NCBI RefSeq assembly: GCF_024521635.1
Contig: NW_026250440.1
Coordinates: 124,001-188,000, forward strand
Source of the DNA: Tricharina praecox
Lineage: Eukaryota
Direction of reading: 5' to 3'
Length of the DNA stretch: 64,000 nucleotides
Part shown: piece after piece, positions 903-38,572 of the stretch
How the letters are laid out: each line of letters starts with the position of its first letter
Numbering within the stretch: position 1 is the first letter of the stretch
Notes under the pieces: model-generated
Seen by the model: the letters and a program-made list of their open reading frames with translations, nothing else
Told to the model about the DNA's origin: nothing
The model's database searches: none
Translations under genes and position numbers: made by a program

Positions 903-1413
903 GCACCACGAGGCCGGATGAAGCCGGAGTACTGTATTCAGTTAAGGGGATTGGGTGGTGGCGGGAGTGGTGGAAGGTGGTTGTATGTACACTACATACA
1001 GTATATATGCGGAGTACTTATCGCACCGTGCTCCTCCCGTCGTGCTCTGTTCTTTATATTTCGCATGTCTAGTCGAGACCCTCGGAATGTGATGCATCCA
1101 TCCACTGAGCGTAGCTGCGTAGTTTCTGCCAAATATCGAAACCACAAACAATCGAGATCCACGCGAGTGAACGACCATGAAGATCGCTCAACGTAGCTTT
1201 GTGACGATTCATCTGTGTGTTAAATAGAGTGCCGTAGTGGTTGAAGTCAAGTGAAGGTCTCTCTCCACCGTAATGGGCAGTTAGGTAGGTAGTATGCACT
1301 GAACATGTCAGCCACAGCACACCTCTCAGTGACCTCTGACTTGACCATCTTCCTTCATCCCTCGCAAATAGCCAGGGCGACAACGAAAGACGTAGACCGT
1401 AGACGTAGTTTTT

Positions 1414-1664
1414 GTTCGCATCAACTGGAGGCAGTGCAATACCAGTGGCACAGTGGGAGTCGACATGCGCAAGCACAGCGGCCAGCTCCCGGACTTCAAA
1501 AATAAGATTAATATTAGAACCGATATATAATCGGATTTCAGATATTAAACTGAAAAGAACAGATACTACACTTGATCTAAGCCAAAAGGCTGTAGAAGGG
1601 GGACTGTTAGCAAGATATTCGATGCTGAATGTTGGGGGATGGGGGAGACGTACCAAAGAGAGCT
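1414..1664 (-). ncRNA. U2: U2 snRNA gene, copy 1, with spliceosomal intron 1590..1653
   Basis: Reverse strand reads AGCTCTCTTTG|intron|CCTTTTGGCTTAGATCAAGTGTAGTATCTGTTCTTTTCAGTTTAATATCTGAAA. Sm site TATTTTTG, loop IV ATTGCAC, TATA box at 1700..1706. Confidence 0.93.
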
Positions 1665-5154: not shown

Positions 5155-5536
5155 GTACACCTTTCACCATTTCCCCAACCAATCCACGAACAGCTCTTTA
5201 ACGAGTGATATATAATGTACCCCAGGTGTGGAGAGAGGAGAGGAGAGGGCGCTGGTTGCAGTGTGCCGAACTCGGGTCCGGAGTGAACGAGATGCGTACT
5301 GTATGACATGACCTACATACAAGGTAGGTCGGATGGATTATGTCGAAGCAGCTGTTAGTGAGCAAAGGACCCCTCCCGGCTCCGATGGTGCACAAGGCGT
5401 GATCGGCGGGATCGAAAGACAGACGTTACGATCGGGAGCAGCGGCGAAACAAAAGCCCAGACCTCAGCCCTGCGCCCTAGCAGCGGCGAAAGCTCGAACG
5501 GCGAAAGCTCGACGAGGCTAGTGCCTCTCCAACAAC

Positions 5537-5543
5537 TATATAA
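5537..5543 (+). promoter_or_regulatory. TATA box of U2 copy 2 (conserved in all four copies)
   Basis: TATATAA about 40 nt upstream of the predicted U2 start. Equivalent boxes at 16037..16043 (+), 1700..1706 (-) and 28137..28143 (-). Confidence 0.7.
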
Positions 5544-5579
5544 TGACCCGTTCCCCCCCGCTCCTCTTCTTTTCTCTTT

Positions 5580-5832
5580 AGCTCTCTTTGGTACGTCTTC
5601 CTCGCCCCCAACATTCAGCATCACCGAATATCCTACTAACAATTTTCCTTCTACAGCCTTTTGGCTTAGATCAAGTGTAGTATCTGTTCTTTTCAGTTTA
5701 ATATCTGGAAGCCGATTACATATCGGTTCTTATATTAATCTTATTTTTGAAGTTAGGGAGCTGGCCGCTGTGCTTGTGCATGTCGGCTCCCACTGTGTCA
5801 CTGGTATTACACTGCCTCCAGTTGATGCGAAC
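5580..5832 (+). ncRNA. U2: U2 snRNA gene, copy 2, with spliceosomal intron 5591..5656
   Basis: Exon 1 AGCTCTCTTTG, intron GTACGT...TACTAAC(5634..5640)...CTACAG. Exon 2 has the branch-recognition GTGTAGTA, stems IIa/IIb, Sm site and stems III/IV. Spliced length about 187 nt. Confidence 0.93.
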
Positions 5833-5898
5833 AAAATTCCGTCTTTCATTGTTGCTCTGGCTGTATGCGAGAGGACGAGGAAAGATGATCGTTTTCTG

Positions 5899-12804: not shown

Positions 12805-14623
12805 TTGAGAAATAATTCCTCGGCATCAGCTCGTTTCCTGAACAACAACCGGGCCTTGAGGTCCGGCAGACACGAGAATGAGAAATTCTCGCTCTGGGGT
12901 CGACCCTCTCCAGGAGATGTTCTAAACTCATAATTGCAGATCATGTACGCCAGCAGCACCTTCAGTTGCGCAGCTGCAAAAGCACGGCCGGGACTAGGGG
13001 TCTCGTCAGCTAGGATGCAATCATGGGGAAGGTGGTGCGGTTACCATGCGTGCTTTCCCCTCCCAAAAGACAGATAACCTTTCTCGGGACAAGTCAATTG
13101 ATGCTTTGCTTCGTGGCCAGGCTCCTCGCCCTCCCTCATCCTTGAAAAGCGAAACGCGTCATATTCGTCCGGATTGGCATAGTGCTGAGTTGAGCGGTTG
13201 ATTGCGCAAGCCGGTGCAACGACCCACTGACCTTTGGGAAGATACGTCCCGTCGGATAGTGTCATCGGCTTGAGAGCTTTACGCATCATAGTTGCTGAGT
13301 GGGAGAATCTGTCAGGTAGGGGACAGACGGGTCAAAGACAAGACTGACCTGTAGTAACTGGTTCGAGTCTCTGGGTCTCCTTGAGAGCGCTGTCTAATTT
13401 CTTCATTTTGATCAACGCTTCTTTAGTGAAACCTCCACATTCGACAAGCACACTCTCAATCTCATCTCGGATCGGATCTTGGAACTCTGGTCGCGCACCC
13501 AGATCGTACAGAGCTTGGATGATGCTAACGGTTGTCGTGTGGATTGCCGAAAAATCGACATACAAGATCCGTGCACAGAGTTCGTACACCGAAGTTCCAG
13601 GAGGAGAAGCCTCGAGAACCCATTGGATGCCGTCGTTCTGCAGAGAATGTTAGAATGGACTGCGAAAAGCCTGGCGCTCGAGAGGAACATGCACATACCG
13701 GTTTATCCTTCCACTCTTCCCCGGCCAATTCCTTGATCATCCTCTGACGCTCCTCAAACGCGGGTCCAAGCTTTGCGAGGAAGATACGAAGAGCCGAACT
13801 TCTCGCCACAAGGAAGTAGGCGAGAATAGCCTTGAGCATGCGCGGCGCGAGGTCAATTACGAGGCCTGCGCGTGATACGGCCTCTGATAGTTCCACCTGG
13901 CACTTGAGGTACTCTGGATCCCGGGACAGCAGCGGTCCGACTAAAACTCGGTTCGTCGTCGCGGAGATGCAGCTCAACATCGCGTGGTAGATATCGATAC
14001 GTGCCCACTCGTCGCCGATGTCGAGATTCTCGCGAGAAAGGGCCCAACATATCTTCTCCACGATATCGGGCACGACCTTGGCCAGGTGCTGAGAGAGACC
14101 TTTCCGGACTATGTCGACATGGTATGGGTTGGTGTGAATGCTGCTACTAAGAGTGTATCCTATGGAGTTGCGTTCGTTTGCCGCCGCTTGCATCGATAGT
14201 ACGCTTGGATCGGCATTCTTCAACTCGTCAAGGACGGAATCGCTTGTAGCCACCACAACCCACCGTCCTGGTGTGGATATCTTGAAAGATTTACCAGACG
14301 GTCCGTACTGTTACCATATCAGCTTAGACGATGATTCCTTGATGAATGCCAGAGTGGACGAGATACCTTGCGGACGCCACCATGAATCAATTCTCCGGAG
14401 CTTCTAACAAATTTGAGGGCTGCTATCCACGACCCTAAAGGAACTGAAGGTACTCCGAAAGACGGAGCCGTAGCCTAAGGATAAGATGAGCAACTATACT
14501 TTCCTGCTTCGGGAAGGGAGCATGAACAACTTTACATAGCTCAACACGATAGGAGTGATAGAACAGATATAGCATCAGCAAGACGGCGGGAACGGCGAAG
14601 GCATAGTTCCATGTCCCATCCAT
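12786..14623 (-). CDS. cytochrome P450 monooxygenase (ent-kaurene oxidase-like / CYP503-CYP512 type); multi-exon
   Basis: I-helix FSAIHTT, K-helix KETQR, heme motif FGRGKHA|CPGRAFA across an intron, and an N-terminal hydrophobic anchor. Subfamily is inferred. Confidence 0.9.
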
Positions 14624-15640: not shown

Positions 15641-16079
15641 CCCCTTCCCCAACTAACCAATCCGCTCACGGTCCGTTGGCGAGTGATAAACGATGTACTC
15701 AAGACGTGCAGAGAGAAGAGGACATCTAGTTTCACTGTGTCGAACTCCAGGTCCGGAGTGAAGAAGATGCGTATTGTATGTCGTGATTTACATAGGAAGT
15801 ATATAAGGTACGTACATAGGTCGAGTGCATTATGTTGAAGCAAAAATGGAAATCCCCAAAGGACCCCTCCGGCAATGCAGGAGGCGAGATCAGCAGAACC
15901 GAAAACCAGCCAGAAGATCACGCTACGATCGGGAGCAGCCAAACAGCTACCAGGACACGACAAAAGCACAGACCTTAGTTAGCCCTAAGCCCTAGCAGAG
16001 GCGAGAGTTCGCCGAGGCTAGTGCCCCACCGACAACTATATAATGTCCCGTTTCCCCCCCTTCTTCTTCTTTTCTCTTT

Positions 16080-16332
16080 AGCTCTCTTTGGTACGTCTTC
16101 CTCGCCCCCAACATTCAGCATTACCGAATATCCTACTAACAATTTTCCCTCTACAGCCTTTTGGCTTAGATCAAGTGTAGTATCTGTTCTTTTCAGTTTA
16201 ATATCTGAAATCCGATTATATATCGATTCTAATATTAATCTTATTTTTGAAGTCCGGGAGCTGGCCGCTGTGCTTGCGCATGTCGACTCCCACTGTGTCA
16301 CTGGTATTGCACTGTCTCCAGTTGATGCGAAC
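16080..16332 (+). ncRNA. U2: U2 snRNA gene, copy 3, with spliceosomal intron 16091..16156
   Basis: Same architecture as copy 2, offset by exactly 10500 nt. Branch site TACTAAC, loop IV ATTGCAC. Confidence 0.94.
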
Positions 16333-16807
16333 AAACTGTGTCTGCGTCTTTCATTGTCGCTCTGGCTGTATGCGAGGGGATGAGGAAAGATGTTTGAGTC
16401 GGAGAGGGTGTGGCGCGGTGCTGTGGCTGTCGTGTCCATTACCCACCGTCCCGTTGCAGTAGACAGAGACCTTCACATCGGCCAAACGCCGTCGAGATTG
16501 CCGGGCAGGGGGCTCCGTGCAGAGAGGTTTGCATTGAATCGGCTTGTGTGTGCTGAAGTTGAGCCATGGTGGTCCGGCTGTTCTCTCTTGAATATGTTGG
16601 TATTGCGGGCACAGTCCTCACCCATCACTCGTGCTTCCGTCTGGAAAAACGTCTGGAATCATAATTCTCACTACCATAGCTAGCTGACTACACCGACGGA
16701 CACAGACTCCCACAGTACCTACCGCAACCCAATCCAAACGTTACAATACTCTTATACATACATTCCCCAACTTGATAACAGCTCCCTACTACCTAGGTAG
16801 CCCAGTC

Positions 16808-25942: not shown

Positions 25943-26149
25943 TTTGTTTCAAATTCTCGTTGTCGCGATGGGAGGTGTGTGGTGTGTGGATATGATCGAA
26001 GTGTTCTTTATGAGTGAGGTGGCCACTGGGCAGATCAGGCTGGTTGCGTCAGAGGGGTGGCGTGCCAAGCCACACGCGGCGGCAGATGTCAATGCCGGAT
26101 TCGCGTCTCCTTCGCTTCGGGCCCTCGTCCTCGACACACACAAAACACG

Positions 26150-27130
26150 ATGTCGTCCTCCCTCGCTGAATACCTCGCAAAAAACTACCTCACCGCCGAC
26201 CCACCGAAGAAGAAGGGCGGCCTCAAAAAGCGCAAACGAAAGGAAAAAGATGCCGCCACCACGTCCTCGAGCTCCGGGCTGATCATCGCCGACGACGATG
26301 CAGCAGGCTGGGAAAATACCGCCGCCAACTCGGACGACGACGACGGACCGACCATCAGCGGCATGACCAAGTCCTTCAAGAAATCTACCACATCGAACTG
26401 GAAAACTATCGGGGGAGCATCGGAGGCGGCGGAAACCGCAGCGGCCGACGCGATCCTCGCTGCCAACACCGACGGGAGAACGGAGGATGATGCGCCGACT
26501 GTGGCCGATGATTCCCTAGCCGTGAAGATGAGCTCTGGTGCGCATGCCGGACTACAGACTGCTGCACAGATCGCTGTGCAGATGGCCAGAGCGAAAGAGG
26601 AGGAACGGAGACGGTTCGAGGCTACGGATCCGGCGGAGAGTGGGAAGGGGCAGGAAACCATTTATCGTGATGCTTCCGGACGGATCATCAACATTGCGAT
26701 GCAGCGTGCTGAGGCGAGGAAGAAGATCCGCGAGGAGGAGGAAAAGAAGGAAAGAGAGAAGGAGATGGTGAAGGGCGATGTGCAGAAGTTGCAATCGGAG
26801 GAGCGGGCGAAGCGGTTGGAGGACGCAAAGTACATGACGTTGGCGAGGTACGCAGATGATACGGAGTTGAATGATGAGCTGAAAGACCGCGAGCGGTGGG
26901 CCGACCCTGCGGCTGCCTTTCTAACCAAGAAGAAGGGCGGAGGCACGAGCAAGACGGGGAAGCCGTTGTTTGCAGGAGCGGCGCAACCAAATAGGTTCAG
27001 CATCAGGCCTGGCCACAGGTGGGATGGTGTGGATAGGGCAAACGGGTTTGAGGCGAAGTGGTTCCAGGCACAGAACAGGAAGAACGAGAAGAGCCGGCGG
27101 GCTTATGAGACTCAGATGGACCTTGATTAG
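26150..27130 (+). CDS. BUD13: pre-mRNA splicing factor Cwc26/Bud13 (RES complex)
   Basis: SLAEYLAKNYL, ETIYRDASGR, RERWADPAA and NRFSIRPGHRWDGVDRANGFE. Confidence 0.95.
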   Translation: MSSSLAEYLAKNYLTADPPKKKGGLKKRKRKEKDAATTSSSSGLIIADDDAAGWENTAANSDDDDGPTISGMTKSFKKSTTSNWKTIGGASEAAETAAADAILAANTDGRTEDDAPTVADDSLAVKMSSGAHAGLQTAAQIAVQMARAKEEERRRFEATDPAESGKGQETIYRDASGRIINIAMQRAEARKKIREEEEKKEREKEMVKGDVQKLQSEERAKRLEDAKYMTLARYADDTELNDELKDRERWADPAAAFLTKKKGGGTSKTGKPLFAGAAQPNRFSIRPGHRWDGVDRANGFEAKWFQAQNRKNEKSRRAYETQMDLD

Positions 27131-27556: not shown

Positions 27557-27850
27557 TATATATCAGCGAGAATCATGGCTCCAACACCTCCCATGAGAAG
27601 TAGAGTACTGGTATGGACGATGGATAAGAGGTTTGTTCATAGCATAGACAGAGGAATAAGCGGACCACACTACCAGTCGAAGCAGCGCATGAAGCGTCAA
27701 TTTCTCCCGACAAAGCTGAGAATCCCCACGGTCGGCATGCCTATGAACGTTGACGAAGAGCATTTTGCGCCACTCCGTCGTGACAAACTAACACAATCTT
27801 TCCTCATCCTCTCGCATAGCAGCCAGAGCGACAATGAAAGACAAATTTGT

Positions 27851-28102
27851 GTTCGCATCAACCGGAGGCAGTGTAATACCGGTGACACAGTGGGAGTCGA
27901 CATGCGCAAGCACAGCGGCCAGCTCCCGGACTTCAAAAATAAGATTAATATTAGAACCGATATATTATCGGATTTCAGATATTAAACTGAAAAGAACAGA
28001 TACTACACTTGATCTAAGCCAAAAGGCTGTAGAGGGAAAATTATTAGTTGATATTCGGGAATGTTGACAGTTAGGGGTAGGGAAGACGTACCAAAGAGAG
28101 CT
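27851..28102 (-). ncRNA. U2: U2 snRNA gene, copy 4, with spliceosomal intron 28027..28091
   Basis: Reverse strand reads AGCTCTCTTTG|GTACGT...ACTAAT...CTACAG|CCTTTTGGCTTAGATCAAGTGTAGTA. Sm site present. Confidence 0.92.
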
Positions 28103-29465
28103 AAAGAGAAAAGAAGAGTAGGGAGGGAAGCGGGCATTATATAGGTTGTGGAAGCGCGCTAGTGTGAGCCCGTCACCGCTCTTAGGGCTTAGGGCTAAGG
28201 GTTTGTTTCTGGCAAAGCAGCAGTAGCGTGCGGTAGGACCCATCAGTTACCATCTTCTCGGACATGCCCTAGCTCTTGCGGATATGCACTGGCCTTCCCC
28301 TCCGGATTTATCGTTCTATATCCGAGACTCTTCGATCATGGCAGTATCTAGTGTATTCAAATCCCGTGTCCTAAGTCCTAGTCATCGTCTTGAAGTTGGC
28401 TGCAATTCAGCTGCTCTCGATATTCTGCGAGTGCTGGCGGCCGCTATGGCAATGAGCTCCATTAGAGTATTTGCTCCGAACCCATTCGCCGATAGCCAAA
28501 GACACTTTCCCCGGACTTCCCAAAAGCGACCGTAAGGGATTTGGATTATGCGAAAGCCTAATGTCATGAGGGACACCCGTGATCCACGTGGTATGTATCC
28601 CTTCCAGGCCCTTCCAGGCACGCCGAAAACGTGAGATCCCATCTGCCGATAATACATATGAACATACGTGATAAAGAACCATGAATCGATCTCCAACTTT
28701 CTACAAACCTCCGAGTGATAATACATATGGCCACCATCAAAGGCTACAAAGCTCACCACAAGCTCGGCTCATGCTTGATCATCTTCGGTTGCTCCTTACG
28801 CTACTCCTGGCATCGCAACATGGCCAACGTTAAGTTCTCCAGCTGGCCGGCAGTGAGCTTGTGAATCGGACGAACGTAGGTATTTTAACAACAGGCGTAC
28901 AGAGCAGCACTCTTCGTGAAGAATGCAAGAGAGAGAATATCGAGTTATTGTCACATAGGGCCTGTCCAGACTATGGCGGCCACATTGGGCAGAATGCATA
29001 TTTTGATCTTGCTCGTCTTGGTGCATCCACGAGTGATAAGTAGTGCTTTCCACACGCGTCTGGCATTTCGCGCTAACCTTTGTCCGCGTCTTCCAGGGAT
29101 CAGCTCTCCATTCTGTTGATTCCCCACCATCACCATCGTCATCGCCATCCACCACCGCACGCCGCCACATCCGGCGACGAACATCGCCGAGCTAGAATGC
29201 TCACGACCGCCGGGCGGACAGCATGTCCTTCCTGGACCCGTCTAATGCGAGAACTCGAGGGTAAGAGCGTCAAACTCCGGCCTCCACTGCTCCACGAGCT
29301 GGAGCGCTGCAGAGCCGACGACCTTGACCCTACTCTCCGGATGCGTCACTACACCGTACTCCCACATCCCCTCTTCTCTCCCCAGCGCACCAAGCGCATC
29401 TAATCGTGCCCTGGTCACTACAGATCCTCGGAGTGCAGTCCACGTACCCATACCACCTCATTACC

Positions 29466-36440: not shown

Positions 36441-38572
36441 TTAAGCAGTGATGCTATTGGTGCCGCCGTTGACACCGTTCACGCCATTGACCTTGCCGGC
36501 GGCGGCGGCCGGGAGACCGTTCTCCTTACCGTCGAGGCCGAGATCCTTCATGAGTTCCGACACCTCGAACGTCTCGTCCAGGTCCTTGACTTCAAGGTTC
36601 TCAAACAGGTCGAAGATCTTGCCCTCGCGGTGGAAGTCGTTGTCGACTAAGGCAGTCAGTTATTAATCGTCCAAATTACAGCTCATGAGAAAGACATACC
36701 GATGTTGACCAGCCACCAGGTGTCCATGACGCCTTGAAGCAGATGCCTGCTCACACTGCCGTGACTGTAGCAGTGAGCCCAGTCCTCGCCAAGTCTGAAC
36801 GCCTCATCCTTCCACGCCAAGAAACTGATAGTCTCAACGATGGTGGGCTGGATGATCTCCTTGCCCGGGTAGACACCCCAGGTGACAGCGTTGGGGCCTT
36901 CAGGGCTATTGGTCTTGAGCGATCCGCTCTTGTCGACGGCGTAGTAAGTCATGTCGGGATCGCGCTCAATGTTGGTGATCAGGTCTGCAAGGACCTCAGG
37001 GGAGACAAAGAGCTCAAGGTACGACTTCTGGTAGACGTATCCGTTGCGGGGACCCCAACCATAAACCGGATCGGACGACTTGACACCGTTGACTGCGGGC
37101 TGGGAGTTGATGGTCAGGAAACCGCGGCGGTTGAGGTCGATCAGCCTATCCTTGATCACGTCGACTTCGGCGGTTATGGATGACTCGGACCACGGAAGGG
37201 TGGCCAATTTTCCACTCATGTAGCGAGCAAAAGTGTCGGCAATCTCTCTGATCGTCTTGGGTTCTCCGTAGCGCTTGATGTTGGACTCATTGGAGCCACG
37301 AAGGCCAATGCCGTATGAATCCACCTCTCCGAAGGCGGGAGACCGTGAATCACCCCAACGTCCATTAGGAAACTCGTCCCAGTCTTGGGTGCGCTGGACA
37401 TAGGATGCCTTGCGGTTCTTCCAGAAGATAGGACGGACGTTCTCGCTCTTGCGGTTGAAGCCAAGCGATGGGCGGAAGGGCAGAGGCGGGTGAGCCTGGT
37501 CCAAAGTGGGAATCAAGTTCAGGCCCTCCAAGACCATGCGTGTAGCAGTAGCCAGGTTCATGGTGTAACTGCAGAACCGTTAGCAGATGCTCACACGTGC
37601 GAGGGTGCAGGATGTGAGGCATACAAATGCAAGTGGTGGATTCCCGAATCAATGATCTTCTGGCACATCTCCACTACCAGGTCCCGCCCAATCTCACGAA
37701 CCGCAACGTCGTCGTTCTTAACCGGCTCCAGCAGTTCGAGCCACCGGGGTGGGACATGGCATTTGGTCCAAGTCGCACGCCTCATGAATGCCGCATACGT
37801 GTGGATGGGCATGATACCGGGGATGATGGGGACGGTAATGCCGATGTCCCTGCACTTCTGTACCCAGTCCAGGAAGATTTCGACATCGTAGAACATCTGA
37901 GTGATGATGAAGGTGGCACCAGCATCAACTTTCTCCTTCAGATGCTGCAGCAACAAATCCGGTGGGGTGTCTTCCTCGCAGCCCTCAGGGTATCCGGCAA
38001 CACAGATATCAAAGTAATCGCCGTAGTTGGCGCGAATGTGCTTCACGAGATCCTTGGCGTAATGGAATCCATCTGGGTCGGCCTCCCACTTCTCGTTCTC
38101 CCTCGGGGGATCACCACGCAGGGCCAGAATATTCGTGCAGCCCGCCTTGTACGCCTCCTTCAATGCTTCGTCGACTTTCTCCTTGGGCATGCCCGTGCAG
38201 GTCAAATGCATCATGGTTTCCAGTCCGTAAACCGACTGGGCGACATTGACCATCTCGCAGGTCAACTTCGAGAGGCGGCCACCGGCGTTCCATGTGATGT
38301 CGATGAACTGGGGACCAAGGGAGTGCATACGATCCATACCTGTCATGCCGTCAGCAACCGGGAATGCGATCGTCCCAAAAGTGACCGGGGATCATACGGT
38401 CATAGAGGTTTTGGACACCCTGCAAACGCCGTTAGCGTCACGCGACTTAAAGGAAGAGAATTGTAGCGACGTAGCAACATACCTGGCCCGTCTTCGGGGG
38501 GTAGAACTCGAACGAGAAGATGGTCTTCTTCGACTGCTCGCTGTCGGCGAGCTTCTCGCTGATGTGAACCAT
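36441..38572 (-). CDS. MET13: methylenetetrahydrofolate reductase (Met13-type); multi-exon
   Basis: FSFEFYPPKT, FIDITWNAGG, NILALRGDPP, ITQMFYD, WDEFPNGRWGDSRSPAFG and NAVTWGVYPGKEIIQPT. Confidence 0.95.

Follow-up and report, generated by a model that had tools for sequence, protein, structure and literature searches.

Can U2 small nuclear RNA (snRNA), itself a spliceosomal RNA, be encoded by genes that have to be spliced before they yield their product? The question is raised by a 64,000-nucleotide stretch of the Tricharina praecox contig NW_026250440.1 (positions 124,001 to 188,000, forward strand), which harbours four copies of the U2 gene. The whole of this stretch, 64 kb in length, is referred to here as the window and positions are numbered from its first letter. 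According to a sequence-only reading of the window, every U2 copy is interrupted close to its 5′ end by a canonical spliceosomal intron. The analysis described below makes it highly probable that a genuine U2-type GT-AG spliceosomal intron lies between nucleotides 11 and 12 of U2 in every copy. We are similarly confident, on the strength of sequence comparison, that the four copies are best explained, intron included, as U2 snRNA genes that are active, are of the RNA polymerase II type and belong to a Pezizomycete-like filamentous ascomycete.

The search of the window was performed with the Rfam covariance model RF00004 (U2), whose gathering score is 46 bits, and recovered four full-length U2 genes in which model positions 1-192 are covered:

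5644-5836, plus strand: Rfam U2 match of copy A, 151.0 bits
16144-16336, plus strand: Rfam U2 match of copy B, 147.2 bits
1410-1602, minus strand: Rfam U2 match of copy C, 149.0 bits
27847-28039, minus strand: Rfam U2 match of copy D, 152.7 bits

The predicted genes start further upstream than these matches, with a short first exon, the candidate intron and a second exon that contains the body of U2:

5580..5590, plus strand: exon 1 of copy A, AGCTCTCTTTG, 11 nucleotides (nt), with the predicted transcription start and mature 5′ end at A5580
5591..5656, plus strand: predicted intron of copy A, 66 nt, with donor GTACGT, TACTAAC at 5634-5640 and acceptor CAG
5657..5836, plus strand: exon 2 of copy A (U2 body); the 3′ end is approximate, and conservation between lineages stops near 5830
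16080..16336, plus strand: U2 copy B, with exon 1 at 16080-16090, intron at 16091-16156 (66 nt) and exon 2 from 16157 to about 16336
1410..1664, minus strand: U2 copy C, with exon 1 at 1664-1654, intron at 1653-1590 (64 nt, branch motif TGCTAAC) and exon 2 from 1589 to about 1410
27847..28102, minus strand: U2 copy D, with exon 1 at 28102-28092, intron at 28091-28027 (65 nt, branch motif AACTAAT) and exon 2 from 28026 to about 27847

The coordinates and lengths that the sequence-only reading had assigned to the inserts (1590..1653, 5591..5656, 16091..16156 and 28027..28091; 64-66 nt) proved exact in all copies. Exon 2 of copy A accommodates the 3′ strand of stem I, the branch-recognition hexamer, stem-loops IIa/IIb, the Sm site and stem-loops III and IV. 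The alignments of exon 2 display the hallmarks of U2, namely the hexamer, the Sm site AUUUUUG and stem-loops IIa, III and IV.

The splice signals of the insert are in place in all four window copies: the donor GTACGT directly follows exon 1, a terminal CAG precedes the U2 body and the branch A is located 17 nt upstream of that CAG. The branch motif is TACTAAC in copies A and B, TGCTAAC in copy C and AACTAAT in copy D. The passages of PMC5832005 that deal with fungal introns describe a GTRWGT-like donor, an RCTRAY branch, a distance of 6-36 nt between branch and acceptor and a YAG acceptor, with CAG preferred; GC-AG is named there as a common exception. All four window inserts agree with this description on every count (GTACGT, (A/G)CTAA(C/T), 17 nt, CAG). 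When the signals were combined into one composite pattern, GGTAHGT-N30-55-CTAAY-N8-20-YAG, six matches were detected in the window against 0.13 expected, a number reached by none of 100 shuffled sequences, the maximum among which was two. The U2 sites account for four of the six matches. The remaining pair (13638-13699 and 38420-38483, on the minus strand, 61 and 63 nt long) look like ordinary introns of protein-coding genes and, judged by them, the length of the U2 inserts, 56-66 nt across all genes with the exception of the metagenomic locus L034, is typical of introns of the host.

The four paralogs are 100% identical in exon 1, in the donor, in the CAG and in the first 51 nt of exon 2. The interior of the insert is only 78.7% identical and contains insertions and deletions, a value close to the 78.4% of the upstream spacer. 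The earlier assertion that the interiors have diverged while donor, CTAAY and CAG are kept is thus borne out. The idea that the insert houses a small nucleolar RNA (snoRNA) or some other RNA was considered and rejected, as no Rfam match is present there and 56-66 nt of drifting sequence are too small for such a passenger.

Public metagenome contigs were scanned with a degenerate pattern of the Sm-site region of exon 2, which is blind to the presence or absence of an intron. The scan returned 37 loci, eight of which are U2 genes according to Rfam and 29 chance matches. Seven of the eight are close relatives, with 88.6-92.6% identity to exon 2 of the window and Rfam scores of 136-151.3 bits, and fall into about three sequence groups:

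L030 and L001: insert of 64 nt, donor GTACGT, branch TGCTAAT
L013: insert of 62 nt, donor GTATGT, branch CACTAAC
L023: insert of 59 nt, donor GTAAGT, branch CACTAAC
L010: insert of 56 nt, donor GTAAGT, branch CACTAAC
L029 (300-430, plus strand): insert of 57 nt, donor GCAAGT (GC-AG), branch CACTAAC
L034 (423-700, minus strand): insert of 72 nt, no donor, branch CACTAAC

The eighth gene, L036 (408-601, plus strand; 85.6 bits), was set aside as distant and odd. It is an AT-rich U2-like gene, canonical in its 3′ two-thirds; neither the branch-recognition hexamer nor a normal stem I was found in its 5′ third.

An insert occupies the identical site in all seven related loci, and the number of intronless copies among the 11 U2 genes surveyed, four in the window and seven related, is zero. 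A survey of related U2 loci, which the sequence-only reading had suggested, has therefore returned the same intron position throughout. The intron is common to at least four lineages and is present in 11 of 11 U2 genes seen, one of them degenerate. The donor is recognizable in ten of the 11 (GTACGT in six genes, GTATGT in one, GTAAGT in two and GCAAGT in one), and the branch (A/G)CTAA(C/T) and the CAG acceptor in all 11. The branch A lies 12-19 nt from the end of the insert, and the branch motif moves relative to both insert ends, CTAAY being always retained.

The degenerate gene is L034, in which the donor has been lost to a run of T, a run of about 30 C occupies the intron and 5 nt are inserted in the branch-recognition region. 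Its flanks are nearly identical to those of L013. The gene is a dead copy or allele, or else the product of an assembly error in homopolymers. It was excluded from the identity and folding calculations. L034 is also the only gene to depart from the other ten in the first 51 nt of exon 2, which are otherwise invariant. The donor of L029, GCAAGT, is otherwise perfect, and its sister copies L023 and L010 have GTAAGT.

Between lineages, identity amounts to 100% in exon 1, 84% in the donor, 51.8% in the interior, 100% in the CAG, 100% in the first 51 nt of exon 2, 86% in the rest of exon 2 and 42-63% in the upstream spacer. To judge from the sequences, the segments have changed in the way that a functional intron would. 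Splice signals are kept around a drifted interior in six of the seven related loci, L034, which has lost its donor, being the exception. These comparative data, to which the sequence-only reading had no access, strongly support its core claim of a canonical intron in every U2 copy, the same-site inserts being preceded by an invariant exon 1 (100% identical in the four paralogs and in six of the seven related loci); splicing itself we infer. A search of sequencing runs with 5500-5860 listed 23 runs, of which none contained more than 0.13 of the 30 words sampled, a share accounted for by the portion of U2 that fungi have in common, and no RNA run of this organism was among them.

Where, then, would such genes be transcribed from? 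The flanks of copy A contain the following elements:

5468..5480, plus strand: two CCCT(A/G)-type telomere-repeat-like motifs, at -112 to -100 from exon 1
5518..5524, plus strand: CTAGYGC box, candidate proximal promoter element, at -62
5537..5543, plus strand: TATATAA box, 43 nt upstream of exon 1
5840..5887, plus strand: conserved 3′-flanking hairpin of 48 nt, candidate 3′-end processing signal of the precursor

In each of the four window copies the TATATAA box is located at -41 to -43 and the CTAGYGC box at -60 to -62, with columns C39, T40, A41, G42, G44 and C45 of the latter invariant across the 11 aligned genes. CCCTAAG-type repeats are positioned at -85 to -100 from exon 1 in the other window copies. 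The CCCTAA motifs resemble the Tbf1/HomolE-type sites of yeast small-RNA promoters. Conservation of an upstream block, AGCCCTAAGCCCT, extends from the window copies to metagenome groups A and C, and the relatives exhibit an A-rich ATAAAA-like box at about -50. The TATA, CTAGYGC and CCCTAAG elements are spaced upstream of exon 1 and not of exon 2; the TATATAA box is about 107 nt upstream of the U2 start called by Rfam. A pyrimidine tract runs up to exon 1. The A of exon 1 is precisely where conservation between lineages sets in; the three preceding bases are variable (TTT, TCC, CTC). The stretches equivalent to 5468-5543 of copy A are 15983-16043, 1700-1764 and 28137-28194. Only in copy A does a unit of about 15 nt, GGCGAAAGCTCGA, occur twice in tandem, at 5481-5514 (plus strand), between the CCCT motifs and the CTAGYGC box.

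Downstream of the genes, the 3′ hairpin has a folding energy of -23.5 kcal/mol (z = -2.29; 7 of 200 shuffled sequences fold as well) and is conserved in all nine sequences compared, those of the window copies and of L030, L013, L029, L023 and L010. It comprises 17 pairs, of which one shows a compensatory change (UA to CG in three sequences), alongside several one-sided changes. The hairpin lies 5-30 nt past the 3′ end of U2, a variable distance of the kind expected if it directs 3′ processing in the precursor of an snRNA; the signal may be of the RNase III type or of another kind. The genes are not decayed copies, because they are complete U2s with a 100% identical functional 5′ half of exon 2, shared promoter boxes and a conserved, partly covarying 3′ hairpin. 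A cluster of pseudogenes was rejected on the same grounds: the functional cores are intact and identical, and both promoters and 3′ hairpins are conserved.

When the intron is removed in silico, the 11-nt exon 1 and exon 2, both invariant, come together in the register of the Rfam consensus, the spliced RNA having 10 nt before the GCC of stem I as compared with 11 in the consensus. We take exon 1, CUCUCUUUG, to be the 5′-terminal U2 sequence of budding and fission yeast, which pairs with U6 in helix II. The insertion site between nt 11 and 12 lies where U2/U6 helix II borders on stem I. From the gene anatomy and the evolutionary pattern, both directly observed, we infer the start site, the splicing event and the mature 5′ end. 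Transcription would start at the A of AGCTCTCTTTG, about 42 nt past the TATA box and right after the pyrimidine-rich tract. The precursor would consist of the capped 11-nt exon 1, the intron of 64-66 nt, an exon 2 of about 176 nt and an extension that contains the 3′ hairpin. The spliceosome would then remove the intron by means of the GUACGU donor, a UACUAAC-type branch site, to which already existing mature U2 would bind in trans, and the first CAG 12-19 nt downstream. Ligation of the exons would rebuild a 5′ end that includes the U2 strand for helix II with U6 as well as the 5′ strand of stem I, giving a U2 of about 187 nt, and the spliced RNA would finally be trimmed at its 3′ end and assembled with Sm proteins.

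Since the intron is old enough to be shared between lineages and is present in every U2 copy seen, the production of new U2 probably depends on existing U2. This self-dependence holds if intronless copies are absent, the survey of copies covering the window and the metagenomic loci. As to the origin of the intron, insertion by reverse splicing is conceivable. Helix II is peripheral to the spliceosome's active site, and the positional argument is for that reason weaker than it is for the introns of U6, which lie near the catalytic centre.

Several observations weigh against an intron at this site, and the most serious concerns the tail of the insert, whose alignment by Rfam as the 5′ end of U2 was overlooked in the sequence-only reading. 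In that alignment the final 13 nt of each insert, which comprise the pyrimidine tract and CAG (5644-5656 in copy A), are placed on model positions 1-12, with a canonical, full stem I and high posterior probability, and the same alignment is obtained for L001, L010, L013, L023, L029, L030 and L034. An unspliced RNA starting inside the insert would, on this alignment, also pass as U2. Moreover, the insert ends in an invariant heptamer, TCTRCAG, in all 11 genes, and together with exon 2 these 7 nt fold into an 8-bp hairpin similar to stem I, with an energy of -8.5 to -10.8 kcal/mol; the hairpin is at least as stable as stem I of the spliced RNA (-8.3 kcal/mol). Such conservation is unusual for the tail of an intron, and the hairpin would bury the acceptor. 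The invariant tail either favours the absence of an intron or points to a role played by the fold of the precursor. In addition, 11 nt is short for a cap-proximal exon, and the seven related loci derive from only three metagenome data sets, form about three groups and have no assigned taxonomy. A derivation of the intron tail from a duplication of the start-site region was entertained, as both have a pyrimidine tract followed by A..GC, and was dropped: a similarity of such low complexity cannot be scored meaningfully.

The tail gives rise to the main competing explanation, in which there is no intron at all. U2 would start inside the segment at about 5640-5650, the pyrimidine tract and CAG would be its actual 5′ end and would supply the 5′ strand of stem I, and the invariant upstream block AGCTCTCTTTGGTAYGT would be a promoter element that merely resembles an exon 1 followed by a donor. 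Model positions 1-12 do fall on the insert tail, with a full stem I, in four of four window copies and eight of eight metagenomic U2 loci, the A/G change in TCTRCAG retains the pair (A-U to G-U), and an A/T-rich patch (GAATAT, CAAAAT, AATATAT) is located about 29 nt upstream of exon 2. However, the supposed promoter element would have to mimic all at once the 5′ end of U2, a donor whose variation never leaves the splice consensus, the GC-AG variant included, and a CTAAY motif that keeps its distance of 12-19 nt from the CAG while the spacer changes in length and is only 52% identical. The strong TATATAA box, the CTAGYGC box and the pyrimidine tract have the spacing that suits a start at 5580, and no conserved purine start is available 10-12 nt before the GCC of stem I in the aligned genes. 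We regard an intronless gene of this kind as very unlikely. A different objection grants that the intron is real and holds that the clustered copies are minor or silent, with intronless U2 genes elsewhere supplying most of the RNA and no obligatory self-dependence. The count of U2 genes is limited to the window and the metagenomic loci, so that intronless copies could exist elsewhere, a point that also tells against the self-dependence proposed above. Yet the insert is found in four of four window copies and seven of seven related loci, the exon-2 pattern used on the metagenomes would catch intronless copies with the same Sm region, and promoter boxes, perfect functional cores and the 3′ hairpin are kept in all four copies. 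We give this explanation scarcely any weight.

A real intron might also serve as a regulatory device, in which the acceptor hairpin and pairing of the branch site in cis hold the precursor unspliced, to be released under certain conditions, or in which the unspliced form has a role of its own. The distance between the branch motif of the intron and the downstream branch-recognition hexamer of U2 is 31-38 nt, in good agreement with the value of about 35 nt proposed in the sequence-only reading. Cis pairing between the two is found in the minimum-energy fold of seven of ten precursors, with summed pair probabilities of 3.6-5.7, and the invariant tail contributes its 8-bp hairpin with exon 2. On the other hand, pairing is weak in the three genes of group C (summed probabilities 0.7-2.0), and the paired bases are invariant, which leaves no covariation signal to read. 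Since any branch site is complementary to the U2 hexamer, pairing between neighbours is expected without selection and is therefore not evidence of function; the earlier proposal of cis pairing is upheld as a prediction for seven of the ten folds. A regulatory intron of this kind strikes us as highly improbable. A bolder extension, which remains unlikely, is that the intron is ancient, that the making of U2 requires it throughout an entire order of filamentous ascomycetes and that it has been co-opted as a sensor. The invariant tail would then hold a U2-like stem I fold, with the acceptor hidden and the branch site held in cis, and only free mature U2 small nuclear ribonucleoprotein would open the precursor, tying the output of U2 to the active U2 pool. 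A corollary would be that annotation by covariance models hides such introns and that U2 introns in fungi may be widespread and overlooked.

The genomic setting of the genes is that of a dispersed local cluster rather than a tandem array. The four copies are contained within 27 kb (1410-28102), two per strand, with unrelated protein-coding genes separating them and a repeat unit of about 0.5 kb that extends from promoter to 3′ hairpin. In the window as a whole, the Rfam scan detected no family other than U2, and tRNA genes were likewise found to be absent from its 64 kb. The long open reading frames (ORFs) of the window encode a homogentisate dioxygenase, an Obg-type GTPase, Bud13 and an aspartate-kinase-like protein. 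The closest named homologues of the dioxygenase all belong to Pezizomycetes (Pyronema omphalodes, 77%; Trichophaea hybrida, 73%), with further homologues at 65-68% in Rhizina, Geopyxis, Sphaerosporella and Tuber. From this single protein, a position in or near Pezizales is a lead, and it agrees with the filamentous ascomycete of the sequence-only reading. The ORF with the Bud13 domain (26018-27130, plus strand; Pfam E = 5.6e-51) ends about 700 nt from U2 copy D. Bud13 is part of the RES complex, a pre-mRNA splicing and retention factor; its proximity to a U2 gene is probably a coincidence.

Introns in the genes of spliceosomal RNAs are rare, and they serve as evidence on two questions: the way in which new introns are born, by reverse splicing close to the active site, and the spliceosome's control over its own supply. 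The candidate U2 intron described here is present in all local copies and shared by several lineages of early-diverging filamentous ascomycetes. If true, it would be a clear example of self-dependence, with U2 needed for the making of U2, and would offer a natural system with a cap-proximal exon of 11 nt. Being at a new site, it would also add a second, independent U2 case to the single one of 1993. There is a practical consequence for annotation as well. The Rfam U2 model reports these genes as uninterrupted and with a wrong 5′ end, because the pyrimidine tract and CAG of the intron imitate the 5′ end of U2, and similar introns elsewhere would be missed in the same way.

How does this candidate compare with the interrupted small RNA genes already described? 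A full-text literature search, which did not reach the intron-marking supplements of PMC2396436, yielded no report of a U2 intron in Pezizomycotina. Intron-bearing snRNAs are marked in a figure and in those supplements of PMC2396436, which may bear on novelty. For Aspergillus fumigatus, the relevant section of PMC2377427 describes a U2 predicted by BLASTN that 'could only be partially aligned', and that section mentions no intron. With respect to intronless U2 as represented by RF00004, the hallmarks of exon 2 are the same and score 147-153 bits, whereas the true 5′ 11 nt appear 64-66 nt further upstream.

The nearest precedent is the basidiomycete yeast Rhodotorula hasegawae, for which the text of PMC5855946 refers to an intron in U2 and to others in U1 and U5. 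As in that yeast, a spliceosomal GT-AG intron would reside in a fungal U2 gene and the spliceosome would process its own RNA. The R. hasegawae U2 intron of Takahashi et al. (1993) is said to be located just downstream of the branch-recognition region. The present intron would differ in falling between nt 11 and 12, in occurring in a filamentous ascomycete and in being shared by four paralogs and about three related lineages.

U6 introns are known from Schizosaccharomyces pombe and many other fungi, including those of a survey of 147 fungal genomes (PMC5855946, in the part that treats U6), where it is also stated that 'experimental validation ... is necessary' for most of them. The U2 insert shares with these introns the canonical donor, branch and acceptor in an otherwise unconserved sequence, the location in the gene of a spliceosomal RNA and the same logic of self-dependence. 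Unlike U6, a polymerase III transcript with introns near the catalytic core, U2 would be transcribed here by polymerase II from a TATA-driven promoter, with the intron 11 nt from the cap.

The U3 snoRNA genes of most Pezizomycotina harbour an intron in the 5′-most stem-loop, and the passages of PMC5832005 that report it present only U3 and U6 as small structured RNAs that are often interrupted, U2 not being listed there. Although the RNA is a different one, the resemblance to U3 is close: an independently transcribed, snRNA-like gene bears one short canonical intron in its 5′-most stem-loop, and the position is kept while the sequence drifts, U3 paralogs having near-identical introns. Set beside these known systems, the window genes would add a second U2 intron, at another position and from a new lineage, which is distinguished by a tail that mimics stem I.

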